Positions 8,725-45,661 are shown, counted from the stretch's first letter. The stretch: 47,463 nucleotides of DNA from Chthoniobacterales bacterium (GCA_041748815.1 JBGTCP010000593.1:1-47463), one strand, 5' to 3'. Program-made: numbers and translations. Notes: a model not told the origin generated them from the sequence alone.

Positions 8725-11034
8725 TCACGTTGGAAGCAGGATGTTGGCAGAGACAAATTCCCAAATCTCATTTGGCCGCGTTTGAAAGATTGCCACAACT
8801 CCTCCTGCCGGCGGGCCATCCGACCATGCGGGCTCTTGTTTTTTGGACGAGGCAATTTCCAAAGCGTGGAAATCCTCACTTCGCGCTGAGCACCAAATGG
8901 CGAGTTTGCCACCCCGCTCACTGGTGATCATGAGCTGATCGATCTTTCCTGCCGTGAATGCGCACTGGACAAGAAATGCACCTTCCGTGCGCAGGTTTAC
9001 AAACTTCGCATCGCGATTCAGATCCCACACCGGAAACAGTCTTAGAAATCCTTCGTGGCTCTGGAGTAAGGATTCATTAATGATCGCCGTGCCGCCCGCG
9101 GTCTCCAGTCCTCCGAGCGTGTGCCACACCGTGAGGTTCGGCCGGATTCCTCGACACCATCCGGCGCCGAAGTAGCGGTCGGGATTGCGCGGATCGCCCT
9201 CTTTCATCCAATATCTCATTCGTGTGTCGGCGAGATGCTCCTCCAGCCTGTTCATGATGTGCGGGTAGCCGGTGCGAACTGCCGCCATGTAGGCCCAGAC
9301 GAAAGAATTTCCCTGATCCCAAAGCTCAAGGAGTCTAAGGGTGTGAAACCCGAGCGTGCGGTTTTCCGATTGTCCTCCGATCACGAAATCGCCGCTTCCC
9401 GGCCAGAATGCCGTATACAGAGAGTGGGTGCGGCTGAAGCGTCCGCAGTCCTCCGATTCCACCAGCACCGGATAGCCATCAAACTCCGATGCTGGATACT
9501 CTGCCAGATTGTCCGCAATATCTTTCCAGACACTCGCTGTTTGTGCATCGGGACTCAGCAGCGGTATGAGTTTGATGAGCGATTTGAAAAAATGCTTCAC
9601 CAAAGCGAGGTCCCAGGTTGAGTTCCGGAAATGGTCTCCGTGTTCATGGGCAGCGCTGCCTTCGATGTGCCAGCGCCCGTGCTCATGCTTTAAAAATCCT
9701 GTCCAGAAGTCCGCAACCGCATACAAGAGCGGTGCAGCTGTGCGGGAAAGAAAATCAGGGTCCAAGGTGTGTAGAGCATGTGACAGAAAGTTGACCGCAG
9801 CAAATACCGAGCATGATTTTTGACTCATGTAATCATCCGCAACCACGATGCCTGCAGGCCCGATCCCTACAGGGTAATAGGCCCCTTTCTGAGCAGGGTC
9901 GAGATCCTCACTGGCACGCCGTAACGACTCCGGGAGAAAATCCAGGATCGCTTGATAATACGGGTGAGCAAAATCCTGACGATTGCTGCTGTAAAGCCCC
10001 TGGTAAGGTTGCTCGAAGTTGTAGTTCAGATGATAATCCCCGTTCCAGCGCGGATGGTCACTGGTGGCCGGACCGAACAGGCCGGGTGCGGTTTTCCCGG
10101 CCCGGTTCGTGCATGCCAGCAGGTATTGAGATCCGTACCAGAAGCGCTCCAAGGTGCCGCCACCGAGATCCAGCCATGCCAGCATCCAGAAATTTTCCCA
10201 CCACTTGCTATGTTGCTGCAAGGCCAGACCCGCAGGTTGGGCATGCAATTTTTCTAGCGTCTGCCGCGCCTGAGCTACCGGCTCCTTTGCATCCATGCCT
10301 CCATCGCAATAGGCCATGAGGTCACGGCTCCCGCCGGGTGCAAGGCTGATTTCCACTTTCACTGCTGCATCTGTTACCTGTGGAGCTTCGGCGGCTGTGA
10401 GCCCATCCAGCAAAATTGCCGCCCGGCTGACCCACCGCCCCCGGTCCCATGTGCTGCGCGTGACAAATGCGGTCTCGCCGTCGCACGATGCTTCGGTCGG
10501 CAAGATCGCGTCCGGGTCGTCGGATTTTTTAGCCCAAAGGCAGAGTGTGATTTTGAGCGGCTCATTGCCCGTATTCTTCAAGGCAAGTGACAAGAGATTT
10601 AGATTCGCATCCACGCGGGAAACCATCTTCAGGCCGGCGTTTTCTTTGCGGAATGTCGAAGTCAGAATCGCGCTGGAAAGCGCCAAGTCCTGATGATACG
10701 AAGCTCCTATCAGCTCGGTACTGGCAACTGTAACACCTCCGATCACAATCGGGCTCACCACGTAACCGGAATAAGGTTCATTGGTTTGCCACCCGGTTCC
10801 ATCCGTCCAGAAATCATTCTTTGAAAGATAAAATGTCTGATTCTCCGGCGGGCCGCCGACCACACATCCGAGATCCCCGTTGCCTAAAATGGGACCGTCC
10901 GGGTAATCCGGTGTAGGCACCATGTGAGGCGGATCCAGCAGAATTGCATCATGCCGGGCCAGGATGGATTGCACGGATTGCCAGTCGGAAGGGATATGAC
11001 TCATGGAGGAGATTGTGTGCGTGGAGAGTGGCAC
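8725..11034 (-). CDS. Six-hairpin glycoside hydrolase distantly GH95-like
   Basis: 769 aa. GPILGNGDLGCVVGG parallels the GH95 N-terminal motif, and HPRWNGDYHLNYNFEQPYQGLYSSN parallels the GH95 catalytic block. No signal peptide. Confidence 0.6.
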   Translation of the reverse strand: MPLSTHTISSMSHIPSDWQSVQSILARHDAILLDPPHMVPTPDYPDGPILGNGDLGCVVGGPPENQTFYLSKNDFWTDGTGWQTNEPYSGYVVSPIVIGGVTVASTELIGASYHQDLALSSAILTSTFRKENAGLKMVSRVDANLNLLSLALKNTGNEPLKITLCLWAKKSDDPDAILPTEASCDGETAFVTRSTWDRGRWVSRAAILLDGLTAAEAPQVTDAAVKVEISLAPGGSRDLMAYCDGGMDAKEPVAQARQTLEKLHAQPAGLALQQHSKWWENFWMLAWLDLGGGTLERFWYGSQYLLACTNRAGKTAPGLFGPATSDHPRWNGDYHLNYNFEQPYQGLYSSNRQDFAHPYYQAILDFLPESLRRASEDLDPAQKGAYYPVGIGPAGIVVADDYMSQKSCSVFAAVNFLSHALHTLDPDFLSRTAAPLLYAVADFWTGFLKHEHGRWHIEGSAAHEHGDHFRNSTWDLALVKHFFKSLIKLIPLLSPDAQTASVWKDIADNLAEYPASEFDGYPVLVESEDCGRFSRTHSLYTAFWPGSGDFVIGGQSENRTLGFHTLRLLELWDQGNSFVWAYMAAVRTGYPHIMNRLEEHLADTRMRYWMKEGDPRNPDRYFGAGWCRGIRPNLTVWHTLGGLETAGGTAIINESLLQSHEGFLRLFPVWDLNRDAKFVNLRTEGAFLVQCAFTAGKIDQLMITSERGGKLAIWCSARSEDFHALEIASSKKQEPAWSDGPPAGGVVAIFQTRPNEIWEFVSANILLPT

Positions 11035-33895: not shown

Positions 33896-34495
33896 TTAAG
33901 ATCCGCGTTGAGGTGCAACGAGCGTTTCGAGAGCGTTTGCGTAATGATCCAGTGCGTCCGCCTGTGGGATTTGTATTAATTCAGAGAGCTTTTGGTGCAT
34001 TTCGAACGCCCTTGCGCAAAACGGCCTGATTGAGTCCTGATTGACAAGAATTCTGACTTTCCTACTTCTCTTCTTTCGCAGCACGCGAAGCGGTTCGCAG
34101 CTGCATGCTGCGATCATTTGCAGGTTCGCCTGGTCCCGGAGATCGCAAAAATAGAACCAGTACGGACATAACGCGACCACCCCCGAGAAGAATGCCCTTA
34201 TTTCCGGCACCTCATAGACTTCCCGCTGGTCACCATCAAATCCCTGGATCGCAAACCGTATATTACACCGAAGTTCACGAATATGGGAATGGTCCTGCTT
34301 GTATTCTAGAAAATTTTTAATGAGTTCAATCCGGTTTTCTGTAATCATTTGGTGGCCTATCACGAAATATACCGGTGGTGGATCGGTCCATGATCCGCGC
34401 TCGACCTGTTTCTGCATCCACTTCTGCTTGCCATATCCGGCTGGCAGATCCCAGATCAAATCACCATCACTGCTATGTGCAATTGTGAACATCAT
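33896..34495 (-). CDS. Hypothetical protein translationally coupled to the sigma-like gene
   Basis: The start at MMFTIAHSS (34495) forms an ATGA overlap with the stop of the upstream gene (34492-34495). No recognisable motifs. Confidence 0.55.
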   Translation of the reverse strand: MMFTIAHSSDGDLIWDLPAGYGKQKWMQKQVERGSWTDPPPVYFVIGHQMITENRIELIKNFLEYKQDHSHIRELRCNIRFAIQGFDGDQREVYEVPEIRAFFSGVVALCPYWFYFCDLRDQANLQMIAACSCEPLRVLRKKRSRKVRILVNQDSIRPFCARAFEMHQKLSELIQIPQADALDHYANALETLVAPQRGS

Positions 34496-35178
34496 TCCCT
34501 CCCCTCCATGGCTTGCACAATCCGGCGAACTACAGGAAGTGCACGGGCCTCGCGCTGGCACGCCGCCTGACGGCTCATGGTCAATTGCTCGCCTGCTTCG
34601 GATTGCGTCAGCCCATCTTCAATTTGCAGACGCAGTATCTCGGCATCGATGCGATCTATCCTATTCTGAGCCAAAGCCTGGAGCAGCGCGGTAAGTGCAA
34701 CTTCCTTCAACCCTTCCGCCTCAGTCAACGACGCATCACTTTTCAGACGTTGTGTGAGTTCATCTTGCAGTTTTCTCTCAGCCATGTTTCGGCGTGCATG
34801 CTCCGAAAGACGCCGTGCCACCGAGAATCGGAGTGCCGAATTGATGGTCAGCAGCAGAGCCCGTTCGACATGCTCTGTAGCTTTACTACGCGTTGCCAGG
34901 GTTAATATTTTGCTTCCAGCAAGGTGGCTTTGATGCAACAGAATCAGTGCATCCTGACACACTTCTTCGAGGAGAGTAGGCGCAATATTCATTGAGCGAA
35001 TGCGTGGTTTCCATTGTGCGATGAATGCGGCTAGCATCTGAAAAAAATCATCTTCGCTTATGGCATCTCCGCTCCCGCTCTGAATTGCGATCCAATGTTG
35101 AGCGAGTTCCTGGAGCGATGGGTTGGCCAGCCAATCTTGGCTGGATGGACTGTTAGTATGTGTTGGTTTCATATTCAC
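34492..35178 (-). CDS. Sigma-70 family (ECF-like) RNA polymerase sigma factor
   Basis: Region-2-like LLEEVCQDALILLHQ and region-4 HTH LRLQIEDGLTQSEAGEQLTMSRQAACQREARAL. 228 aa. Confidence 0.6.
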   Translation of the reverse strand: MNMKPTHTNSPSSQDWLANPSLQELAQHWIAIQSGSGDAISEDDFFQMLAAFIAQWKPRIRSMNIAPTLLEEVCQDALILLHQSHLAGSKILTLATRSKATEHVERALLLTINSALRFSVARRLSEHARRNMAERKLQDELTQRLKSDASLTEAEGLKEVALTALLQALAQNRIDRIDAEILRLQIEDGLTQSEAGEQLTMSRQAACQREARALPVVRRIVQAMEGRE

Positions 35179-35283: not shown

Positions 35284-35514
35284 ATGAGCAAAAATCTCGA
35301 CCTTTCCCTTGCGCTCGTCCGCGATGCTGCTGCATCTCGGGGCGATTCACATAATTCGATCGACGAAGCAGTAGGGGCGATCTGCCGCGCACTTCATGAG
35401 ATCACGAGCGATGAGACTGATAGCGACACGCTTCTTGAGAAGTTTACCATTGTCGCTGCATCGGCCTTGGTTGCCATTGAGCATCTCATCGAGACAGAAC
35501 AGGAGGAAGACTAA
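35284..35514 (+). CDS. Small acidic hypothetical protein (76 aa)
   Basis: First ORF of the plus-strand chain. Its stop overlaps the next start (TAATG at 35512-35516). An AGGAGGA Shine-Dalgarno for the next gene lies inside its 3' end. Confidence 0.45.
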   Translation: MSKNLDLSLALVRDAAASRGDSHNSIDEAVGAICRALHEITSDETDSDTLLEKFTIVAASALVAIEHLIETEQEED

Positions 35515-36893
35515 TGAAGGGGGCCTGGACCAAAGAGGAGTTCGAGGAGACATTGCGTTTGCTTGGGATGGGATTGACGCCTGCCCAGATCGGGCGCAGT
35601 CTCGGACGTTCGGAAACCGCTGTGCGGCTAAAAGTCATCAAGGCTGGATATTCCTCCCGCGTGGTAGATCCGGGGGCAGCAAAGCCGTCATCATCATCTC
35701 TGGAAGGGGATGGATCAACTCCTGCTAACCCTGCTCCACGGTCTGAGCCCAGTGCGGGGGGTGAAACATTTCATTCCGGAGTATCTCTCGAGGCTGCCCA
35801 TGAATTGCTGGATATGCGGGACGAACGAACACGCAACCGTCGCGAACGTGCAGAGGCTATTGAAATCGCTCAGCGTGATCGGTTGCTCGATATTTTCAGG
35901 GAAGCCGTTTCAGGTTGCCTCATTGATTACAGGATTCACCCGCCGCAGCGCTCGGCACCGCAGCCGACCTCAGCGCACGCGGCAGTGCTGCTGCTCGGCG
36001 ATCTTCATGTTGGCAAGGTTTGCTCGGAGGCAGAAACCGAAGGACGTGCAATTTATAATCCCGCACATTTCGTCGCCCGACTCGCTCTGCTTGAGAGGGA
36101 AGTCCTGCAATTGATTGAGGACGGTCCAGCAGTCGATGAACTTGTCATCCTCTTTCTGGGAGATGTGGTGGAAGGCCATTTGGATCATGGCGCAGAGAAG
36201 GAAGATAATCTTTTAATTTCCCACCAATTTGTGTTGGCGACGCACCTGCTCTCACAATTCCTGTTGAGAGTCGCTAGTTCTGTCGAGACGGTGCGGGTAT
36301 ATGGGGTCGGTGGCAACCATGCCCGCTGGCCGGGACAGAGACGTCCACCCACGGTCGGGCGCGAGAGCAACCTCGACCACCTTGTTTATCGTGGGATTGA
36401 AATGATCGTGGAAATGGCGGATGCCAAACATATCCGGTTTTGTCTCAGTGAGGCTCCACGGCAGACTTTACAGGTCAAGACATCCACCATCGCTCTGCTA
36501 CACGGGGATCAAATCAGGGGAGGGGATTTCTACGTGAACGGCATCAAGCGAGAGGTATTCTCTTCGGTTCTCCGCCATGCGCCAAGCGGGAACATGCCAG
36601 ATATCTGGATCGCCGGCGACAAACACGTTCCGCAGTCTATGAGTGTTGGTTTAGGCCGCTGGTTGATCAATGGATCATTTGTGGGAGAAGACACTTTTGG
36701 TCAAAACTTTTCTCCCGCCAGCGCATCCCAAACTCTGCTTTGGATTTGTCCAAGTAAGGGCAAGTTCCTTCAAGCCGAGATCCGCCTGGATGGAGCCGTT
36801 CCAAGTGATCCCCAGCCGTATCATTTGAGCGCGAAACTCACTGAACTCATATCACCATTCGTCCGTCAAAACACCATCTATGAAAACAACTGA
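35514..36893 (+). CDS. Myb/SANT-like HTH fused to a calcineurin-type metallophosphoesterase
   Basis: N-terminus AWTKEEFEETLRLLGMGLTPAQIGRSLGRSETAVRLKV. Phosphoesterase motifs are LLLGDLHVG, LFLGDVVEGH, GVGGNHARW, ALLHGDQ and IAGDKH. Confidence 0.75.
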   Translation: MKGAWTKEEFEETLRLLGMGLTPAQIGRSLGRSETAVRLKVIKAGYSSRVVDPGAAKPSSSSLEGDGSTPANPAPRSEPSAGGETFHSGVSLEAAHELLDMRDERTRNRRERAEAIEIAQRDRLLDIFREAVSGCLIDYRIHPPQRSAPQPTSAHAAVLLLGDLHVGKVCSEAETEGRAIYNPAHFVARLALLEREVLQLIEDGPAVDELVILFLGDVVEGHLDHGAEKEDNLLISHQFVLATHLLSQFLLRVASSVETVRVYGVGGNHARWPGQRRPPTVGRESNLDHLVYRGIEMIVEMADAKHIRFCLSEAPRQTLQVKTSTIALLHGDQIRGGDFYVNGIKREVFSSVLRHAPSGNMPDIWIAGDKHVPQSMSVGLGRWLINGSFVGEDTFGQNFSPASASQTLLWICPSKGKFLQAEIRLDGAVPSDPQPYHLSAKLTELISPFVRQNTIYENN

Positions 36894-37311
36894 AACCCAC
36901 CACCAAACACTCCTCGCCTTGGCCCGGATGCCGCAGGCCGAATTCCTTGATGTCCTATCGCGGGCAAAGCAACTCTACTCACTGCTTTATGCTGAAGCGG
37001 AGTCCGGCGCTCGGCATTCCGAAGATCACGCAGACCCGCGAGGTCCGGGCATTCCGGAATCTCCGGAGGGGATTCGTCGGCGTCCTCAAATGAGGGATCC
37101 TGCACCAGGTTCGCTGCGAGAAACCGTTTATGAGATTTTGCAGCGGCAGGGAGGCCCCATCCAGCGGAAGGAAATCATTGAGCAAGTTGCGGCCATGCGC
37201 GGCGTTCCGGTTTCAGAGAGCTTGAAAGCGGCCACTGGGGAAGTTTTGCGCAATCAGCACGATCCCCACATCAGGCGTGTGGCCACTGGTATTTACGCAT
37301 TAGCCGCATGA
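36880..37311 (+). CDS. HARE-HTH domain protein
   Basis: C-terminal LRETVYEILQRQGGPIQRKEIIEQVAAMRGV...HIRRVATGIYALA fits the HARE-HTH pattern (RpoE-delta/restriction-associated wHTH). 14-nt overlap with the upstream gene. Confidence 0.6.
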   Translation: MKTTETHHQTLLALARMPQAEFLDVLSRAKQLYSLLYAEAESGARHSEDHADPRGPGIPESPEGIRRRPQMRDPAPGSLRETVYEILQRQGGPIQRKEIIEQVAAMRGVPVSESLKAATGEVLRNQHDPHIRRVATGIYALAA

Positions 37312-37655
37312 GGCGAAAGAAACGGGTTCGTTGTTTCCAGGTATGTCGCGAAGTGCGGGGAACGTGGTTTATCGTGGGGTACTGCTCGGGATGGGAGGTT
37401 GATTTTCCGAATTTTATCTTGCTGTCATATCCCTTCAAACGGGAGGAATTTCATTCGCCGCTTGGCAGCATTTCCTGCAGGAGTAAATGGACAGGGTCTT
37501 CAAGGCTTCCTGCACAAACCCATATTATCGATCCGATCCGGCCACAACCTTGGATGGAGATAGAGTATCACGACTTGATGGTAGTGACCGAACTGGTGGA
37601 GTCCCTCGGCCTCGACCTCCCTGAAGATGGCTTTCGCAGACACAGTTCGTCATGA
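37308..37655 (+). CDS. Hypothetical 115-aa ORF bridging the HARE-HTH and ATPase genes
   Basis: ATGA overlaps at both ends (37308-37311 and 37652-37655). The composition is Cys/Arg/Trp-rich and not obviously protein-like, so this could instead be a spacer. Confidence 0.35.
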   Translation: MRRKKRVRCFQVCREVRGTWFIVGYCSGWEVDFPNFILLSYPFKREEFHSPLGSISCRSKWTGSSRLPAQTHIIDPIRPQPWMEIEYHDLMVVTELVESLGLDLPEDGFRRHSSS

Positions 37656-38533
37656 ATTCGCCACGCATTTACAGCTATCAGCACCCCGTTTTTCATGCTT
37701 TGCATGCCACGGCTCGTGTGTTCTTCGGAGGCGCATGGCGATCCCTTCCGGTGCTTCCACGATTTGCCCGGTTTGTGTCTGGACCGACGGGGGCCGGGAA
37801 GTCGCACGTAGTGCGGGAACTTGCCCGGGTTTTGCGCATACCTATCCTTCAGCTCTCGGCTAGTGCGTGGATCCCCCTTGGAGCGAACCGCCGCGGCGCA
37901 GAGGTGACTTGGGTGGACGTGGCTGCTTTTTGCGGGCGAAATCCCCGTGGGATAATTCTGATCGACGAATTGGATAAAGTGCGTGGCGAGTCTCCGTGGC
38001 TGGACGCAATTCGTCCGGAAATTTTCAGCTTGATTGACGGCATTTTTCCTGAACCCGCATTGATCGGAGACGAGGAAAATACTTTTTCGGACAACCCCAT
38101 CGAGAGGGAGAAAATAGTGTGTAGACTCGCTGGAAGCATGCTTGTGATCGGGGCCGGTGCATTTCAATCAGCTTGGGAGCCACAGGCTGGCGTGCTGGGA
38201 TTTCACCCCACAGGGCTTTCGTCCGAGGCTGCGGTTGATCACAAAGTGATGGCTGAGGAAATACCCCGTGAAATTGCGAACCGATTCGTGGCTCCGATTC
38301 TCTGCCTGCCTCAGTTGTGTGAAGAAGATTACCGCTCAATGCTGGATGAAGTGGTCGGGCATCTGCCGCCTGAGTTGGCCACGTCCGTGCAGCGGGTGGC
38401 GCTGAACTCCCTGCATGAGGCAGTCGATCATGCGATGGGGGCAAGGTGGATTCAGCAATCTTTACTCCATGCATTGATCGAGATAGAGGCAGTGGTTGAT
38501 CGTGAATTCACAACGCCTGCCCCGGATTTGTAG
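37652..38533 (+). CDS. ClpX/HslU-like AAA+ ATPase module without N-terminal zinc-binding domain
   Basis: Walker A FVSGPTGAGKSHVVRELARVL, Walker B GIILIDELDKV. MLVIGAGAFQS...GFHP parallels ClpX ILFICGGAF...IGF. EIPREIANRFVAPILCLPQLCEEDYRSML parallels ClpX LIPEFIGRLPV...L. Confidence 0.8.
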   Translation: MNSPRIYSYQHPVFHALHATARVFFGGAWRSLPVLPRFARFVSGPTGAGKSHVVRELARVLRIPILQLSASAWIPLGANRRGAEVTWVDVAAFCGRNPRGIILIDELDKVRGESPWLDAIRPEIFSLIDGIFPEPALIGDEENTFSDNPIEREKIVCRLAGSMLVIGAGAFQSAWEPQAGVLGFHPTGLSSEAAVDHKVMAEEIPREIANRFVAPILCLPQLCEEDYRSMLDEVVGHLPPELATSVQRVALNSLHEAVDHAMGARWIQQSLLHALIEIEAVVDREFTTPAPDL

Positions 38534-38595
38534 GATGCCGCACCGTAAACAAAGAGCTCGCTCGGCACTTCTTTAGGATCTCGAAGGAGATTCAC

Positions 38596-38784
38596 TCATT
38601 CCCCTCGCGGGAATGCCGTTATCCATAGCACCACAAGGCATTCCAGCAGCATGGCTACAACGTAGCAAAGCACGCTCAGAATTCCGGCCACTACGCCGAT
38701 GCTTATCTGGCAAATGCTCAGCCCAACCTGGGTGAATGCCCGCAGCACCAGCACGGCAACCACGATTTGAATAATAATGATCAT
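38596..38784 (-). CDS. Small (62 aa) two-TM hydrophobic protein on the opposite strand
   Basis: MIIIIQIVVAVLVLRAFTQVGLSICQISIGVVAGILSVLCYVVAMLLECLVVLWITAF. GGAG lies 8 nt upstream of the ATG on the minus strand (GGAGAAACACCAATG). Confidence 0.4.
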   Translation of the reverse strand: MIIIIQIVVAVLVLRAFTQVGLSICQISIGVVAGILSVLCYVVAMLLECLVVLWITAFPRGE

Positions 38785-38949
38785 TGGTGTTTCTCCATTT
38801 CAATCGAGATTCCTCTCTCTTCGAATGGGCGCGAAAGCGCTCGGGCTAGACATCCTGATTTTGACTCCGAGCCGCTGAAAAACCGAGTCTCGAAAAAAAG
38901 TTCACTCTTCCACTTGCCCTGCCGCGGCAAAACCCGGAAATCCCCAAGT

Positions 38950-40053
38950 ATGGCACAAAAAACTAAAATTCAATGGTGTGACTCGACGATTAATCCGGTG
39001 ATGGGTTGCGGCGGGTGCGAACTCTATATCTCTCCTGGGGAAATCCTTGCTCATCTCGATCTGGAGATGGCGGGGCATGGCGCATGGCCACAGGGCACGA
39101 GTAGAGATATCTACAGGCAACTGATCACGGAAACATACGAGCGGATCGCCAATCTGATGCCCGGACATTCCAAGTCACTAACCACGACGAATATTTATCA
39201 TTTGCGTAAAGAGTTCCTTGCTGAGGTGGCATCAGGGCTTGGCAAAAAAGCATCCATAGCTGCTGAGCGGGTGATTGGCGAGTCGATCGCATGTTATGCG
39301 GCTAAAAATCACCTCAGCAAAGCACGCTCCATCGTGAACCCCGGGCGTGGTTTTAATACCGGATATGCACCAGCGTTTGAGATGGTGACGCGATTTGAAG
39401 ACCGGGTTTGCAAAGCTGCACTTTACCGCGATCTCCGTGGTCAATCTCGTGCCGACAAGCCGTGGCTCGACGACCTTCCCCGACACATTTTTGTCAGCGA
39501 TATGGGTGACGCCTTTTCGCGGGAGTCCGATTTTGAATTCCTCGAAAAGGAGGTCATCGAACCAATCCGCTCTGTTAGTGGCCAGCGTCACCGTTGGCTT
39601 TGGCTGACCAAGCGTCCGGATCGGATGGAGCGCTTCGGTGAACGGATCAACGGTTTCCCTCCCAACGTGATTGCTATGACCACCCTCACTGGGCCAGGCA
39701 CGCTTAACCGGGTCGATCAACTTCGTCGTGTTTCGGCGGCAAAACGAGGGCTCTCCATTGAGCCGCTCAGGCAAAGAATTTGCGCTTCAGAACTCGACCT
39801 GTCGGGCATCGATTGGGTGATTGTTGGGGGAGAAAGTGGTCGACGCGAACACGTCTGTCCATTCGATCTGGACTGGGCTCGCGAACTCCGCGACCACTGC
39901 CAAGTGAGCGGCGCGGCGTTTTTCTTGAAGCAACTTGGCCGTCGTCCGGTGGAGACTGGCAAGGAGTTCCGATTTCACGATAGTCACGGCGGTGAGTGGG
40001 ACGAGTGGCCGGAAGATCTCAGGTTCCGGGAAATGCCTCTCATTTCCACATAA
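38950..40053 (+). CDS. Phage Gp37/Gp68 family (DUF5131) protein
   Basis: The start MAQKTKIQWCDSTINPVMGCGGCELY matches the family N-terminus (IEWTD.TWNP..GC....GC..CY). The C-terminal DWVIVGGESG block is also typical. The upstream 61 codons of the ORF-track ORF are rejected. Confidence 0.75.
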   Translation: MAQKTKIQWCDSTINPVMGCGGCELYISPGEILAHLDLEMAGHGAWPQGTSRDIYRQLITETYERIANLMPGHSKSLTTTNIYHLRKEFLAEVASGLGKKASIAAERVIGESIACYAAKNHLSKARSIVNPGRGFNTGYAPAFEMVTRFEDRVCKAALYRDLRGQSRADKPWLDDLPRHIFVSDMGDAFSRESDFEFLEKEVIEPIRSVSGQRHRWLWLTKRPDRMERFGERINGFPPNVIAMTTLTGPGTLNRVDQLRRVSAAKRGLSIEPLRQRICASELDLSGIDWVIVGGESGRREHVCPFDLDWARELRDHCQVSGAAFFLKQLGRRPVETGKEFRFHDSHGGEWDEWPEDLRFREMPLIST

Positions 40054-40158
40054 TCGAATAAATGAAGCAACGTTTCGGCAAAGGAGGTTTTTGGGAGTTT
40101 CATGTTTTGGGCTAGAAATTTCTGACATTTGTCAGTTTTTCATTGTCAATAGAGATTT

Positions 40159-40842
40159 ATGTGTCAGGTTTGTGGTATGGCAACCGACGGTCAAAATTTT
40201 AATGCTCGAGTTCCGAACGTGGGAAAGTTTTTTTCTGCACTCAGAGATGGGGCTTCTGAAGAGGTCGTTGGCTGTCTCGCGAGCGCGGGACTGGCCCGTG
40301 AGATCACCAATCGCTTGCCCATGCCCGAGATGGGGCGTGCTGTCGAAGCATTGATTGCCAACCCTGGAACCCTTTTTGCTTCGGACGCTCGAACCGCGGT
40401 CGCTCATATTACTGACGTGCTGCGTCCCTTTTTTAGTGACGCTGAGGAAACCGAAGCTTCAAGGCATCTCAAAAACGCACTACACCGAGCCGCACTCAAT
40501 TTGTCTCAGACTGAGGCGCGAGGTAATTCTGAAGATTACCGACGGGCCCTTCATGTTGAACTTGGATTAAATTTGAACCGGGCAATTCTTTTGGAACCCG
40601 CCAGTGGCTACGTAATGGCAAAACAAAACTTGGATGCCGATGAAGTGAAAGCGTTGTGGAGCCGAGTTGAATCGACCGAGGCAAACAAACTCGGCGACGT
40701 CATCGCGAGTATTTGTTCAAGCCCCAAAGGAAAGCCTTCACACAAATTTACCAAGAGCGTTTCTTTTGGTCCGAAGATTGACTCCAGTTCCCGTGAGTCA
40801 CTTGTTGAAACGGTCTTTGTTCCATTGGAGGAATCAAAATGA
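40159..40842 (+). CDS. Hypothetical helical protein coupled to the QueC-like gene (QatB-position partner)
   Basis: 227 aa with no motifs recognised. Its stop overlaps the ATG of the next gene (ATGA at 40839-40842), and a GGAGGA Shine-Dalgarno for the next gene lies in its 3' end. An alternative start lies at 40177. Confidence 0.6.
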   Translation: MCQVCGMATDGQNFNARVPNVGKFFSALRDGASEEVVGCLASAGLAREITNRLPMPEMGRAVEALIANPGTLFASDARTAVAHITDVLRPFFSDAEETEASRHLKNALHRAALNLSQTEARGNSEDYRRALHVELGLNLNRAILLEPASGYVMAKQNLDADEVKALWSRVESTEANKLGDVIASICSSPKGKPSHKFTKSVSFGPKIDSSSRESLVETVFVPLEESK

Positions 40843-42314
40843 GTGTCACCTTGCAGCTGCCCCTCAGTTTCGACAGACCATCATGGAAGGCGAAGCGCTC
40901 GAAAAGATCGCTCAATGTCTCACGCCCTCTGTATCAATTTGACTTTTCCGGTGAGCAGGGATTTGGCCGCAAAACGATAGGGGCCCCAAGTATTCGGGAT
41001 TTTTATCTCCAGGACTGGATCATTAACCGGGGAATTTTCTCCGCCATCCGTCGAGAGCCATTGTTGCCGTGCCAGGCCGATTGGCTCTCGTTTGCGATGG
41101 CTGTATATTCTGCAGATCGCTTTTCGCCCCGCTTCCCTTTTGGCATCAGAGGGGCACGCTTCTGGCGAAGGTCGATTTCTTTAACGTTGTCTGTTGCCGA
41201 GCCGGATCGTTGGAATGCCGCAAAACTTGATCTGATCCACGCTCTTGAATTCCTTACCGGCGACGACTGGGATTTTGTGTTTCAGACCAGGAAACATGCT
41301 TTCGGCTGTGAAACGCAGGCGCATTTGCCTATGGAAATTCGGCGTAATTTGAGTTCGGTCGCTCTTTTCAGTGGAGGTTTGGACTCGCTGGCGGGAGTGT
41401 TGAACCATTCAGCAATACAACACACCCCTGGACTATTAGTTTCGGGCTTTACGCATGGAAGACTGCGCGATGCACAGGATCGACTTGTTTCGGAACTTCG
41501 ATCTTCATCCGCATTCAACGGAGATCACCTGCCCGTCAAATATTCGCTGACTGCCGTGCTGGATGATTCGGGCATCGAGTCAAGTCAGCGCTGCCGTGGT
41601 TGGATCCATGTCGCTATGGGCTTGCTTGCAGCGCAACTCGCTGAGACCAATGTCCTGCATGTCTTTGAAAACGGAATCGGAGCGTTTAACTTGCCCTGTT
41701 TCCGGTCGCAGTCGGGCAGTCAGTCCAGCATGGCAATGCAGCCTATCTTTCTTCGACGCATTTCCGTGGCGGCATCAAAACTTTTGGAGCAAAGCCTGTC
41801 GGTCGTCCATCCATACGCACTGAGTACCAAAGCGCAGATGCTCGACTCTGTGCCCGTTCGCATGTTCTCGGAAACTATTCAGAATAGCATTTCGTGTGAG
41901 CAATATCCAAACTACCACTCCAAGAAGGAGCAATGTGGGGTGTGTCCGTCGTGCTTGGTCAGGCGATCCGCGTTGTTTTCTGCAAAGCTCTCAGATCCGG
42001 GTGGCCTCTATACTCGTGACGTGATGGTGTCTGGAAGGCCCCGCTCATTGAAAGCTGGACGAGGACTCTTCATGATTGAAAATTTCGTGAGGCGACTTGA
42101 AGTGCTCAAAGGCACTGATAATCAGCTTAATTCCTTCCTGCTGGAATTTCCAGATTTTGCAGAACAGATCCGCGAATCTGCCGAATCACTCAATTTGGGA
42201 GAAGACTTGTTTTTGGCACGTTTCCTTGAAATGCAGAAACGATTTGTCAATGAGTGGGACGAATTTGCTGAAAAAATTCAGGACCTTCGTCACGCCTTGA
42301 AAAGGGCAGCGTAA
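40839..42314 (+). CDS. QueC-like PP-loop ATP pyrophosphatase with ~170-aa N-terminal extension (QatC/Cap9-like)
   Basis: PP-loop VALFSGGLDSLAG (SGGLDS at 41370-41387). The Cys cluster C-x12-CGVCPSCLVRR parallels the QueC zinc site C-x8-C-x2-C-x2-C. HPYALSTKAQM parallels QueC ETPLMWIDKAE. Confidence 0.8.
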   Translation: MSVTLQLPLSFDRPSWKAKRSKRSLNVSRPLYQFDFSGEQGFGRKTIGAPSIRDFYLQDWIINRGIFSAIRREPLLPCQADWLSFAMAVYSADRFSPRFPFGIRGARFWRRSISLTLSVAEPDRWNAAKLDLIHALEFLTGDDWDFVFQTRKHAFGCETQAHLPMEIRRNLSSVALFSGGLDSLAGVLNHSAIQHTPGLLVSGFTHGRLRDAQDRLVSELRSSSAFNGDHLPVKYSLTAVLDDSGIESSQRCRGWIHVAMGLLAAQLAETNVLHVFENGIGAFNLPCFRSQSGSQSSMAMQPIFLRRISVAASKLLEQSLSVVHPYALSTKAQMLDSVPVRMFSETIQNSISCEQYPNYHSKKEQCGVCPSCLVRRSALFSAKLSDPGGLYTRDVMVSGRPRSLKAGRGLFMIENFVRRLEVLKGTDNQLNSFLLEFPDFAEQIRESAESLNLGEDLFLARFLEMQKRFVNEWDEFAEKIQDLRHALKRAA

Positions 42315-42340
42315 ATGCGGACCACACAAGAATCAAATCC

Positions 42341-43564
42341 ATGAGTCATCTTTTAGACCAACTTAATCCCAGAATCATTGGGGAAAAACTTCGCATTGCG
42401 CGAACGACGTGCGGGATCCGCCAGGAAGACGCGGCTGAACATATCGGCGTTGCTCGAACCACTATAGTTGCGATGGAGAAAGGCGAACGCCGGGTCAAGG
42501 CACGCGAACTGCAACTTTTGGCGGATTTATATGGCAATTCGATTCATGATTTAATGGATGAGGAGAAAAAGATTGTCGCATTGAGTCCCCAGTTCCGAAG
42601 CCCCCCCAAAGGACTGAACCTTGCCGCAGATGAAATTTTCCATGTCGCGCAGGAGTTGGAGGAGTTTGCCAAGGATTACCATGAACTGGAAAGTCTTACG
42701 GGCTCCCAGATGGTGCAGCGCTATCCTTCAGTTTATCGATACGATATTCCGGGTGTATCTGTGGAACTGCGTGGAGAAGAAATTGCCGGTGAGGAACGAA
42801 CCCGCCTGGGTCTTGGGGATGCACCGATTCTGGACTTGCGCGGTCTCTTGGAAGACTCGGTTGGCTTGCGGATTTTTTATCCCGAGCTTCCCTCACAAGT
42901 GGGCGGAATTTATGCATTCAACGAGGAGCTTGGCGGCTGTATTGCGATCAATCGAAAGCATCCTCCAGCACGAGCGGTGTGGTCTTTGGCTCATGAGTAT
43001 GGTCATTTTCTCACGACTCGAACTTCCGCAGATGTCAGCTTTTGGGACGAGCAAGGCTGGGGACGAAATATGGCGGAACGTTTTGCCGACGCATTTGCCC
43101 GGAATTTTTTGATGCCGCGATCAGGAGTGAACCGTCAGCTCAGTGAATTGGTTGCCTTGCACGGGAAGGGGATCACCGCAGCGGATATATTGATTCTCTC
43201 GCAGAATTTTCGGGTTTCTACGGAGGCCATGTTCCGACGCCTTGAAGAGTTGCGACGACTACCTTCGGGAACGTGGGACAACCTAATCGCCCAAAAATTT
43301 AAGCCCGAACAGGCAAAAAAGACCTTGGGGCTTCAGCCCGCCCTCCAGAAGGAGCCGTTGCTGCCGCTTCGATACCGAATGCTGGCCAAGGCCGCCTTCG
43401 ATCTGGAAGATGGTATTACGGAATCACAATTTTCCAAATATCTTCATCTAGACCTTGTTGCTGCACGGCAAGAACTGGATGAATTGCGGGCTGCTTCCGA
43501 TAAAAGAAGTGAGGATGGCTTTATTCCGTTTGATATTGGCACCCGTATTCTCGTTCCTGCCTGA
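42341..43564 (+). CDS. XRE-family HTH fused to an ImmA/IrrE-type zinc metallopeptidase (COG2856-like)
   Basis: HTH IGEKLRIARTTCGIRQEDAAEHIGVARTTIVAMEKGER. HEXXH motif LAHEYGHFL. Confidence 0.85.
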   Translation: MSHLLDQLNPRIIGEKLRIARTTCGIRQEDAAEHIGVARTTIVAMEKGERRVKARELQLLADLYGNSIHDLMDEEKKIVALSPQFRSPPKGLNLAADEIFHVAQELEEFAKDYHELESLTGSQMVQRYPSVYRYDIPGVSVELRGEEIAGEERTRLGLGDAPILDLRGLLEDSVGLRIFYPELPSQVGGIYAFNEELGGCIAINRKHPPARAVWSLAHEYGHFLTTRTSADVSFWDEQGWGRNMAERFADAFARNFLMPRSGVNRQLSELVALHGKGITAADILILSQNFRVSTEAMFRRLEELRRLPSGTWDNLIAQKFKPEQAKKTLGLQPALQKEPLLPLRYRMLAKAAFDLEDGITESQFSKYLHLDLVAARQELDELRAASDKRSEDGFIPFDIGTRILVPA

Positions 43565-43574
43565 GATTTGGGAA

Positions 43575-44120
43575 ATGGCGACTTTGCTCATCACAGATTC
43601 TTCCGTGTTGCTGAACGTGATCGCCAGTGGCCACGCACCTTCGATTTTTCGGATGTCGTCCTGGCAGTTCGTCGTTTGTCCAAAAGTGGCGGAGGAAGTG
43701 AAGTTTCTCCGTCACCGCATTTCCCGGGAGGTTCGTCCGGTAGAGCTCGCCCCGTATTTTGCGGCTTCAGATCTCCAGTGCATGGCACCAGAAACCGACG
43801 AGGATTTTGAGTGGTTGGTGGATTTTACCGCTGCTCTTGGTCGCGGCGGAGAAGGTGAAGCCATGTGTTTTGCTCTCGCGGCGAGTAGGAAGCTGGCGGT
43901 TGCCATTGATGATCGAAAAGCCATTCGCAAAGCGCGGCGATTCTCGTTGGGTCTGCCAATCATTTCGACGCCAGAGTTGATAAAGGAATGGAGCACCACA
44001 GCAGGCATCGAGAAAGCACCACTTTGCGAAGCGCTTCGGTCCATCTCTGATTGGGCGTGTTACAAACCGTCTGATGAGGACCCACTCGCAGCATGGTGGA
44101 CTGAAGTGCTCCAAGGATGA
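43575..44120 (+). CDS. PIN-like (DUF4411-type) nuclease domain protein
   Basis: LLITDSSVLLN, GEGEAMCFALA and AIDDRKA supply PIN-like acidic residues. It lies 10 nt after the ImmA gene, the usual partner position. The start is chosen at MATLLITD. Confidence 0.6.
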   Translation: MATLLITDSSVLLNVIASGHAPSIFRMSSWQFVVCPKVAEEVKFLRHRISREVRPVELAPYFAASDLQCMAPETDEDFEWLVDFTAALGRGGEGEAMCFALAASRKLAVAIDDRKAIRKARRFSLGLPIISTPELIKEWSTTAGIEKAPLCEALRSISDWACYKPSDEDPLAAWWTEVLQG

Positions 44121-44311: not shown

Positions 44312-45154
44312 ATGACACCACTCCAAAACATTCTCGACTCATACAGAAGCACCTCACAAACCGAGCGGGAAAAAGGCACTTATTTCGAGGAACTCATCCG
44401 CACTTATTTTCGGTATGAAGCCAGTTACGCCGACCTGTACAGCGAAATATGGCTCTTTGCTGATTGGGCCAGGGAAATCGGAACCCCTCAGTTCGGCATA
44501 TCCGCTAAGGATTCCGGTATCGACCTCGTTGCCAGGACCCATGGCACCGAGGAATACCACGCCATCCAGTGCAAATGCTACGCGCCAGATTATCGCGTGC
44601 GAAAGGCCGACATCGACAGCTTCTTCACCGCCTCCGGACGCAAGCCCTTTACTCAGCGCATCATTGTCACCACCACCAATGATTGGAGCGAACACGCCGA
44701 GAATGCACTCAAAGAACAGCAACCGCCTGTTTACAAGATCGATCTCCATGATTTAGAAGTCAGCCAGATTGATTGGGCGAAGTATCAGCCCAGTGCCCCG
44801 CCAGCGCTGAAGCCCAAGTATCCACTTTTGCCCCACCAAACCAGCGCCCGCACTCATGTGATGTTGGGATTCAAATCTGCAGATCGAGGCAAGCTCATCA
44901 TGGCCTGCGGCACCGGTAAGACTTTTACCAGCCTCAAGATCGCTGAGGAAGCTGCAGGTAAGGGCAAACTCGTCCTTTTTCTCGTTCCCAGCCTGAACCT
45001 TCTTTCCCAGACTCTTACCGAGTGGACCCAGCAAAGCTCCCTTCCGCTGCACAGCTTTGCCGTTTGCTCCGATGCTGAGGTGGGCAAGAAACGTGACGCT
45101 AATGAGGACATCGTGGAAACTTTCTCTCACGAACTGCGTTATCTTTTTACGTGA
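44312..45154 (+). pseudogene. 5' fragment of an Mrr-nuclease + SF2 helicase restriction gene (type ISP-like or related large helicase-methylase)
   Basis: Mrr/PD-(D/E)xK-like GIDLVARTH...YHAIQCK, then LLPHQ and helicase motif I ACGTGKTFTS. The frame ends after 280 aa, right after motif Ia, whereas such proteins exceed 1000 aa. Confidence 0.75.
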
Positions 45155-45429
45155 ACTAAGATTCCAAGCCCATCATCTTCGGATATTTTGGGATTCGCTA
45201 TACCTTGTATATCAAGCACGATTATATCATATTCGCCAGTTTCCAGATTTCGAAGATTTTCAATACGCTTCCAATAAGTCACGTTATAGCCTTCTTTCTG
45301 CAGCAACTTGTAGGGAAAAGCCGTCTCATCATCATCAACAACAAGTATTCTCGCACGTTTCCGCAGTTCTGACAGAGGTAGTGCTGGAGCGATCTCAGTG
45401 ATAGTTTTTGACTTAAAAAAAGAAAACAT
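45139..45429 (-). pseudogene. Receiver (CheY-like)-domain fragment, 3'-truncated
   Basis: RARILVVDDDE...YDIIVLDI...DGLGILVHVKR covers beta1 to alpha3 of a REC fold. It then stops at 45139, overlapping the truncated helicase end on the other strand. Confidence 0.45.
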
Positions 45430-45433
45430 CTTC

Positions 45434-45661
45434 CTACACGACAGCAAAAGTCCTTGTTGTGATCGCAGGCAAGGCTCCAGCATGGTCGGCATCGTTGTGG
45501 GTTAGGATAATTGCTTCGATTTGTGGCGGCGTGCGGCGTTCGTTTAGCCAATCGACCAGGGGGCTTCCCAAGGGGCCGACATCAATCAAAATCAAGTTCC
45601 CATTAGGCAGGCAAATTGTTGAGCAATCCCCCTGCCCTACATCCCAGAAATCGATCTGCAC
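45434..45661 (-). pseudogene. N-terminal fragment of a metallo-beta-lactamase-fold (ComEC-type) hydrolase
   Basis: MQIDFWDVGQGDCSTICLPNGNLILIDVG and ILTHNDADHAGAL (HxHxDH-type motif). Only 75 aa, where MBL domains need more than 200 aa. Confidence 0.5.

Follow-up and report, generated by a model that had tools for sequence, protein, structure and literature searches.

The stretch of DNA analyzed here, a contig of 47,463 nucleotides (nt) from a Chthoniobacterales bacterium (GCA_041748815.1 JBGTCP010000593.1:1-47463; hereafter the window), carries four adjacent genes that follow an operator-like palindrome. The genes encode a small protein (the partner), a QatC-like enzyme, a fusion of an XRE-type helix-turn-helix (HTH) domain with an M78 peptidase, and a PIN-domain nuclease. 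An earlier note on the same DNA had proposed that eight open reading frames (ORFs) at 35284-42314 form one new system. Comparisons with related loci show that the unit, operator-like site included, is 40123-44120 and not 35284-42314. This cassette is probably a self-contained operon of four genes that is transferred horizontally and constitutes a previously undescribed variant of Qat, the QueC-family anti-phage system. Its features, with protein lengths in amino acids (aa), are as follows.

40123-40134, no strand: palindromic operator-like site TGACA-TT-TGTCA (TGACATTTGTCA), a 2-nt-spacer version of the consensus TGACAWTGTCA
40144-40148, no strand: putative extra TGTCA half-site, read from the sequence
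40162-40166, no strand: TGTCA half-site, with the right palindrome arm 32 nt upstream and the start codon 15 nt downstream
40177-44120, + strand: four-gene operon (partner, QatC-like, XRE-M78 fusion, PIN)
40177-40842, + strand: partner protein, 221 aa, all-alpha, N-terminus MATDGQNF; positional analogue of QatB, ATGA-coupled to the next gene
40839-42314, + strand: QatC-family QueC-like PP-loop ATPase, 491 aa (PADLOC QatC, 7.5e-55)
42341-43564, + strand: XRE-M78 fusion, 407 aa, with HTH at residues ~10-80, M78/ImmA-IrrE domain at ~172-305 (HEYGH), and a conserved C-terminal domain; predicted repressor/sensor
43575-44120, + strand: PIN-domain (VapC-like) nuclease, 181 aa, true start at 43575; predicted effector or toxin

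Extent and Distribution of the Conserved Unit

The unit was delimited by tblastn of every window protein against 82 related loci. These are contigs L001 and L002 and 80 genome loci, mostly from metagenome-assembled genomes (MAGs), which were retrieved with a profile of the QatC-like subfamily. In 75 of the 82 loci the QatC-like gene is immediately followed by a homologue of the XRE-M78 fusion, and in 72 of 82 the PIN gene comes next. The earlier note had recognized a real XRE-ImmA/PIN pair but assigned it to the surroundings, when its genes are the most conserved partners of the QatC-like gene. Throughout, the four genes are co-linear and tightly spaced or overlapping. Their dN/dS ratios of 0.07-0.20 indicate purifying selection on all of them, and catalytic motifs are intact in the QatC-like, M78, and PIN proteins.

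Contigs L001 and L002 share with the window the partner (84% and 53% identical to that of the window, respectively), the QatC-like enzyme, the XRE-M78 fusion, and a protein of ~185 aa. In blastn the window is 82% identical to L001 over 39454-44118, ending exactly at the PIN stop codon, and its similarity to L002 spans 40153-44105 at the protein level. Clustering of the ORF families within 5 kb on either side of 73 complete cassettes found none that recurs in more than four loci, and the unit is therefore taken to be four genes with fully variable flanks.

The proposal that all eight ORFs at 35284-42314 form one system had its grounds. Eight same-strand ORFs are present at these coordinates, and the junctions had been read correctly. 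Five of the ORFs, termed block 1 (35284-38533), overlap one another (through TAATG at 35512-35516, 14 nt at 36880-36893, and ATGA at 37308-37311 and 37652-37655), and an ATGA at 40839-40842 translationally couples the QatC-like enzyme to its small partner. In L001, a DUF5131 gene is likewise adjacent to the cassette, on its upstream side, and a homologue of the AAA gene of block 1 is nearby. That homologue, however, shares 32% identity, lies 3.3 kb away on the opposite strand, and is the only one among the 82 loci apart from one weak match. Similarly, DUF5131 has a homologue in L001 only (60% identity); its position in L002 is taken by an HD-domain gene, and it is absent from all 80 genome loci. 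ORFs 1-4 of the window have homologues in 0 of 82 loci, neither L001 nor L002 has block 1, and the phosphoesterase and AAA proteins have no close relatives in the viral or metagenome contigs searched. Within the window, block 1 and DUF5131 are 417 nt apart, and the 123 nt between DUF5131 and the partner gene contain an operator of their own. Because ORFs 1-4 never recur in the related loci, the eight genes are not one unit. Synteny rejects the eight-gene system (ORFs 1-4 in no locus, AAA and DUF5131 only in the closest relative), and independent occurrence, which the earlier note itself had named as telling against its proposal, is found for six of the eight genes. We consider a single eight-gene system highly improbable. 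DUF5131 on its own is also rejected as a member of the system, since it adjoins the cassette only in the window and L001.

The cassette is present in ~73 species-level genomes of ~ten phyla. Carriers belong to Verrucomicrobiota, Chloroflexota (including Nitrolancea hollandica), Acidobacteriota, Gemmatimonadota, Actinomycetota (Amycolatopsis, Nonomuraea, and Umezawaea), Nitrospirota, KSB1, Deferribacteres, and Deinococcales, and include one 'Deltaproteobacteria' MAG. A pBRCS1-type plasmid of Methylocystis rosea, NZ_CP044329.1, carries the cassette beside AbiE; on it, RefSeq annotates the enzyme as '7-cyano-7-deazaguanine synthase' and the other cassette genes as 'XRE family regulator' or 'hypothetical'. 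Genes of integrase, phage, or conjugation families are not recurrent in the flanks of the 73 loci, and a tRNA scan for an integration site found none in the window.

A Conserved Palindrome Upstream of the Operon

An alignment of the sequences upstream of the operon in the window, L001, and L002 revealed a palindrome that is kept in all three and that, in the window, is the sole occurrence of TGACA-N0-3-TGTCA in 47 kb. Across 66 loci totaling 1.23 Mb, the exact sequence TGACAWTGTCA has 51 copies, where composition predicts 0.27. All but one of these copies (50 of 51) are at most 150 nt upstream of the start of a partner gene, in 50 of the 66 loci. Additional half-sites accompany the palindrome. 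In 37 of the 50 loci, from phyla other than Verrucomicrobiota, a TGACA half-site is located 32-33 nt upstream of it, and the Verrucomicrobiota loci L001-L004 and L007-L010 keep the TGTCA half-site at position -15/-16. The left half of the palindrome is often a TTGACA -35 hexamer with a plausible -10 element 17 nt downstream, whereas in Dehalococcoidia the palindrome is placed after TATAAT instead. A generic promoter and terminator scan yielded counts not above those of shuffled controls. The conserved HTH of the fusion protein is predicted to bind the palindrome.

The same region of the window has a perfect AGGAGG 13 nt before a 7-codon mini-ORF (MFWARNF, 40083-40125), whose TGA stop is the first three bases of the palindrome. 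The mini-ORF may be a leader peptide or may be due to chance.

The QatC-Like Enzyme and Its Partner

The 491-aa enzyme had been described as QueC-like. Its PP-loop homology is borne out and its SGGLDS motif is present, but it is more specifically a homologue of QatC. In addition to the PADLOC model, it matches the NCBIfam QatC model NF041925 (E 1.3e-54; 185.6 bits, under the 280-bit equivalog cutoff) and QatC of a crystal structure (PDB 9zee_B, 4.9e-24 over residues 100-381). Against the canonical QueC model TIGR00364 it scores 14.3 bits, where the cutoff is 150.3 bits, and Pfam QueC aligns with residues 313-380 only. Among 30 members of the subfamily, SGGLD is invariant and S183 is kept in 29. 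The residues C353, C366, C369, and C372, D93/R94/R98, W109/R111, and T330/K331 are invariant as well, and the QatC-specific motif D142/W144 is also conserved.

The enzyme departs from canonical QatC in its active site. The Thr pair T278/T280 of Pseudomonas aeruginosa QatC is invariant, and its mutation abolishes defense (PMC13279940). At the corresponding positions, the subfamily has Ser297 (30 of 30 members) and Ala or Gly at 299 (29 of 30). The window copy has two further substitutions, which are unique to it and encoded at 41730-41741. One is R298M, at a position with Arg in 26 of 30 members, and the other is H301Q, where 29 of 30 have the His of an 'HP' motif; His301 is retained in L001 and L002.

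Sequence-level homologues of the 227-aa ORF that the earlier note had read directly upstream number only two among 5.8 billion proteins; both are 221 aa and start with M-[A/P]-TDGQ. The ORF exists, but because its two homologues begin at the equivalent of 40177, the start of the partner is most likely there, giving a protein of 221 aa (MATDG...). In ~70 of 82 loci, a family hidden Markov model (HMM) built from 42 upstream ORFs matches, from position 1 and over the full length, the ORF 5' of the QatC-like gene. The AlphaFold2 (AF2) model of the partner (pLDDT 81.6, pTM 0.78) is globular with nine helices, and residues 1-13 and 199-221 are disordered. Across 144 distinct family members, the N-terminus is conserved as M-[PAV]-[ED]-x-D, most commonly MPEGD, MVERD, or MPDGD. 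Residue 2 is Pro in 93, Ala in 23, Val in 20, and Gly in none, and 128 members have a Trp within residues 9-22.

Sequence searches do not identify the partner family as QatB. None of 62 members matches QatB/DUF5610 in PADLOC or Pfam, and the partner-family profile does not match QatB among PDB sequences, whereas the MGTS-type partner of locus L078, a positive control, does match PDB QatB.

The type of partner correlates with the active site of the enzyme. All nine loci whose partner has Gly2 carry T-R-[T/H/S] as the QatC motif, with T-R-T in seven of them; in loci with Pro, Ala, or Val at residue 2, T-R-T is found in 0 of 67. This pattern fits co-adaptation of pocket and substrate, though it may simply reflect two clades.

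Two other arrangements were seen upstream of QatC-like genes. A third class of QatC partner starts with MGH(V/T/I)(R/H)L and has Lys-Trp at residues 16-17 (e.g., ..LPATRKW..). It is found in L071, L074, L075, and L079 (~9050-9850), which derive from Rhizobiaceae, Alphaproteobacteria, and one Verrucomicrobia MAG. Neither an XRE-M78 nor a PIN gene is present at these loci, whose QatC retains the T-R-T/S motif. In L023 (8350-9588) and L048 (8314-9630), the position of the partner gene directly 5' of the QatC-like gene is occupied by transposase-like ORFs of 413 and 439 aa, respectively, which look like insertion sequences that disrupted the cassette.

The XRE-M78 Fusion and the PIN Nuclease

The third protein of the operon matches Pfam Peptidase_M78 (6.2e-13) and HTH_31 (2.1e-10), as well as HTH_3, and the PADLOC models RmrA (2.7e-21), capP (1e-15), and capH (5e-06). 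Residues H218, E219, and H222 of the HEYxH motif, E246, the HTH residues, and many C-terminal positions are conserved in at least 90% of 76 XRE-M78 sequences. It is the most constrained of the four genes (dN/dS of 0.07 relative to L001). A solved 393-aa 'HTH cro/C1-type domain-containing protein', PDB 9vzy_A, shows a weak alignment (E 1.9e-4) to the fusion's M78 region and may be its nearest structural template; we found no paper that describes 9vzy.

The fourth protein is modeled with high confidence (AF2, pLDDT 97.5), and Foldseek aligns the model with the PIN/VapC structures 1v96 and 5h4g (probability 1.0, TM up to 0.67). Acidic residues D8, E41, E95, and D112-D113 are conserved in the family, of which 20 of 64 members match Pfam PIN. 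At E <= 1e-3 the family comprises 830 representative clusters. In all three representatives that were looked up, the PIN gene directly follows an XRE-M78 gene, and both contigs long enough to show the 5' genes also carry the QatC-like gene and partner. PADLOC gives the PIN protein a marginal match only and includes no partner model.

As an alternative, the last two genes may be a type II toxin-antitoxin (TA)-like pair (XRE-COG2856 antitoxin or regulator plus PIN toxin) that travels with a minimal QatBC-like defense pair, stabilizing or co-regulating it while mechanistically unlinked to the QatC chemistry. Consistent with two such modules, the fusion matches RmrA and a 'spr1629 family repressor/antitoxin' model, and the PIN protein resembles VapC toxins. 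QatBC is moreover able to defend by itself (PMC13279940), and a CapH-CapP fusion that is paired with a vapC-like gene has been reported alongside DISARM (bioRxiv 10.1101/2022.04.27.489752). An XRE and PIN pair also occurs alone on a plasmid, as described below. Arguing for one functional unit, the association is near-obligate in both directions, the XRE-M78 gene being present in 75 of 82 loci with the enzyme and preceding the PIN gene in each of the three look-ups. The genes are closely spaced or overlapping throughout and have one conserved operator, which precedes the first of them; conservation among the four is highest for the XRE-M78 gene. We consider two unlinked modules unlikely.

The solitary pair is on plasmid NZ_CP014361.1 of Methylomonas sp. 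DH-1 (L089, 3655-5495). Its products are an XRE regulator of 415 aa and a PIN-like protein that shares 34% identity with the PIN protein of the window. The pair lacks a QatC gene and is divergent from a ThiF / multiubiquitin / DUF1508 operon. The regulator and PIN genes may be a portable control module for several defense systems.

Comparison with Known Systems

The cassette most resembles QatBC of QatABCD. Its enzyme has SGGxDS, a Cys4 Zn site, and the motifs D..R..WxR, DxW..F, and TK, and like QatC, but unlike QueC or Cap9, it is long. A partner of ~200-290 aa is encoded directly upstream and translationally coupled, as in QatBC. Like QatB, it is all-alpha and has a flexible and highly conserved extreme N-terminus with a Trp ~15 residues in.

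Differences from Qat are numerous. There is no match to QatA (KAP NTPase) among ten ORFs scanned, and no flanking family is recurrent in 73 loci. QatD/TatD is not matched in Pfam or PADLOC, and a PIN gene is in the downstream nuclease position. The N-terminus of the partner is M-[P/A/V]-[E/D]-x-D rather than MGTS, with a tail of ~15 aa as opposed to 30-90 in QatB, and the second 'invariant' active-site Thr of canonical QatC is Ala or Gly. The cassette also has two additional conserved genes, the XRE-M78 fusion and PIN, and a conserved operator-like site. In a recent survey, 98% of qat clusters are canonical qatABCD (PMC13434339). The earlier note had likewise found no QatA, QatD, TGT, or preQ0 genes and no fit to a named system, and we concur. 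Although most of the features that define membership in Qat are lacking, the cassette plausibly operates in the manner of QatBC. Neither the Qat papers nor the PF06508 survey mentions an M78, XRE, or PIN context, and PADLOC-DB contains no partner model; the cassette is therefore classed as undescribed.

The regulator has counterparts in CapH/CapP, ImmR/ImmA, and DdrO/IrrE, in which an XRE-type HTH is likewise combined with an M78 HExxH peptidase, and as in CapH/CapP, a palindrome that is the predicted operator overlaps the promoter of an immune-type operon. Unlike in CapH/CapP, the HTH and M78 domains of the cassette are always fused, with an extra conserved C-terminal domain, and the operator sequence is conserved across phyla. 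CapH-CapP fusions do exist (bioRxiv 10.1101/2022.04.27.489752).

Similarity to other systems is partial. As with Cap9 of type IV CBASS, the prediction is for an ATP-dependent enzyme of QueC fold that targets a partner protein at its N-terminus. Cap9, however, is a minimal protein of ~185 aa with a canonical Y/D pocket, whereas the cassette enzyme is QatC-like with a remodeled substrate pocket, and the cassette has no match to CD-NTase, Cap9, or Cap10/TGT (PADLOC and Pfam) and no cyclic-nucleotide effector. The XRE-M78 fusion matches the RmrA models of Rosmer (RmrT/RmrA), but no ORF matches RmrT. In fold and acidic residues the PIN protein is VapC-like, but unlike in VapBC, there is no small VapB antitoxin. 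In contrast to both Rosmer and VapBC, the pair sits within a larger cassette, after the partner and QatC-like genes.

Genes Flanking the Cassette

The remaining features around the cassette in the window are as follows.

33896-35178, - strand: sigma-70 region 4 protein, 228 aa (1.7e-06), with a 70-nt overlap with a 221-aa ORF; divergent from block 1
35284-38533, same strand as the cassette: block 1, five overlapping ORFs
38950-40053, + strand: DUF5131 (Gp37/Gp68) gene (Pfam 9e-41)
44312-45154: type IIG restriction-methyltransferase remnant, 277 aa of ~1646, with Mrr_cat_2 and the start of a helicase (PADLOC 3.4e-110, profile positions 3-274)
45139-45661, - strand: two short, gene-fragment-like ORFs, one a PDC-M43A-like/receiver-like piece (1.8e-10) and one the first 75 residues of a metallo-beta-lactamase-fold protein

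The ORFs at 35284-40053, block 1 and DUF5131, are unrelated cargo of a decaying defense island. Some of the domains that the earlier note had named in them are confirmed and others are over-read. The motifs GDLH and GAGKS are present in the 459-aa and 293-aa proteins of block 1, respectively. The former has an N-terminal HTH-like region and a phosphoesterase that, as the calcineurin type it had been assigned to, is below the Pfam threshold (Metallophos E 0.0027), yet matches phrog_284 'exonuclease' (6.6e-38). In tblastn it has weak matches (22-31%) to phage genes annotated as 'DNA repair nuclease', 'calcineurin-like phosphoesterase', and 'PolII small subunit'. Two metagenome scans and a search of viral contigs found no close relatives, and a PDB sequence search was without match. 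The label 'ClpX-like' is not supported for the 293-aa protein, which has a generic AAA match at residues 42-113 only (6.8e-06) and scores 20 bits with ClpX against a 359-bit cutoff. For 'HARE-HTH' the matches are sub-threshold (WH_Rok 2.8e-4; RNAP delta 0.024), and ORFs 1 and 4 have no profile matches. With weak phage matches only and no close relatives, block 1 is rejected as a recognizable module of a phage, satellite, or integrative and conjugative element (ICE). It may be a separate and very rare module.

The assignment of DUF5131 is solid. The protein matches the PADLOC candidate components PDC-M41B and PDC-M30B (~1e-35), with no matching 'A' partner nearby. Downstream of the cassette, what had been called a decapitated restriction helicase is missing its body and not its head, being the N-terminal 277 aa of a type IIG enzyme of ~1646 aa. 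At the equivalent position, L001 has an intact methyltransferase and an 893-aa ResIII gene. As to the sigma factor upstream of block 1, Lau et al. reportedly found sigma factors adjoining some CapH/CapP loci.

These neighbors also bear on whether the cassette functions in immunity. Pairs of XRE and M78 proteins classically control the induction of prophages and ICEs, as ImmR/ImmA do, and the radiation response of Deinococcus (PMC10904395). By analogy, the cassette could be a DNA-damage- or stress-inducible module for protein modification and RNA cleavage by an RNase, with a role in housekeeping or in regulation of a mobile element. Yet integrase, phage, and conjugation families do not recur around it, whereas its neighbors in the window are the type IIG restriction-modification remnant, the PDC-M43A-like fragment, and DUF5131, and on the Methylocystis plasmid, AbiE. 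QatC, the closest characterized relative of its enzyme, is a defense protein. A role outside immunity is therefore quite improbable.

Proposed Mechanism

The mechanism that we suggest draws on analogies with repressor-peptidase pairs and with QatBC, in which the N-terminus of QatB enters the active site of QatC (PMC13279940), QatBC alone suffices for defense (PMC13279940), and a peptide from the N-terminus of QatB was detected in NDG-modified form (PMC13639016). The HTH of the fusion protein would bind the palindrome as a dimer and keep the operon repressed. A cue from infection or DNA damage would activate the M78 domain, as in CapP/CapH, IrrE/DdrO, and ImmA/ImmR, and self-cleavage would lead to derepression; IrrE/PprI and CapP sense single-stranded DNA (PMC10904395, PMC13228613). 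The QatC-like enzyme would use ATP to activate a carboxylate ligand and conjugate it to the exposed N-terminus of the partner (Pro, Ala, or Val after removal of Met), a step parallel to that of Cap9 on CdnD and QatC on QatB. The PIN nuclease would replace QatD as an effector that degrades nucleic acids or would be a toxin restrained by the fusion protein. The predicted outcome is growth arrest or abortive infection.

More tentatively, the cassette may be a distinct QueC-family protein-conjugation immune system. Its S-R-A/G pocket would modify a Pro/Ala/Val N-terminus with a ligand that is possibly not 7-carboxy-7-deazaguanine, its autoproteolytic HTH-M78 repressor would act on an operator shared across phyla, and the PIN protein would carry out the response. 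We hold this more specific interpretation possible, though with considerably less confidence than that of a Qat variant.

Several points weigh against a variant of Qat that works as proposed. Its activities in defense, DNA binding, cleavage, and modification of the N-terminus are all inferred. Homology of the partner to QatB is not demonstrable, since hhalign against six canonical QatBs gives insignificant probabilities of 0.4-3%. A link by hhalign to the MGH-type partners is unstable (71%, E 3.7e-5 in one alignment and 2.9% in another), and because of the second value it is not relied on. Foldseek of the partner model found no match in a PDB library to 2026-04-08, which probably predates the release of 9zee and 9vlk, so that this negative is uninformative. 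Identity of the partner with QatB is thus not borne out by PADLOC, Pfam, the PDB profile search, Foldseek, or hhalign. A Pro N-terminus is a secondary amine and an unusual acceptor. The regulator is encoded by the third gene and on the same strand, whereas that of CapH/CapP is upstream and divergent. Because the XRE and PIN pair of Methylomonas lacks QatC, the last two genes of the cassette may be a separable module. Lastly, with its two unique substitutions, the enzyme copy of the window itself may be attenuated or reflect an assembly error.

Implications for QueC-Family Immunity

The reaction of QatC and how QatBC stops phage are still being worked out (PMC13279940, PMC13639016). The cassette represents a large and phylogenetically broad sister architecture, with at least 73 species-level genomes of ~ten phyla and one plasmid, that is missed by current HMM cutoffs and RefSeq annotation and in which a PIN nuclease and a fused repressor-peptidase take the place of QatA and QatD. 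It offers three testable items, the operator, the regulator, and the effector, and culturable carriers include Amycolatopsis, Nonomuraea, Nitrolancea hollandica, and the plasmid-bearing Methylocystis rosea. The acceptor N-terminus and an 'invariant' active-site residue shift together, which provides comparative data on the substrate of the enzyme. If the cassette is a protein-conjugation immune system, this co-variation would be a direct handle on the QatC reaction.

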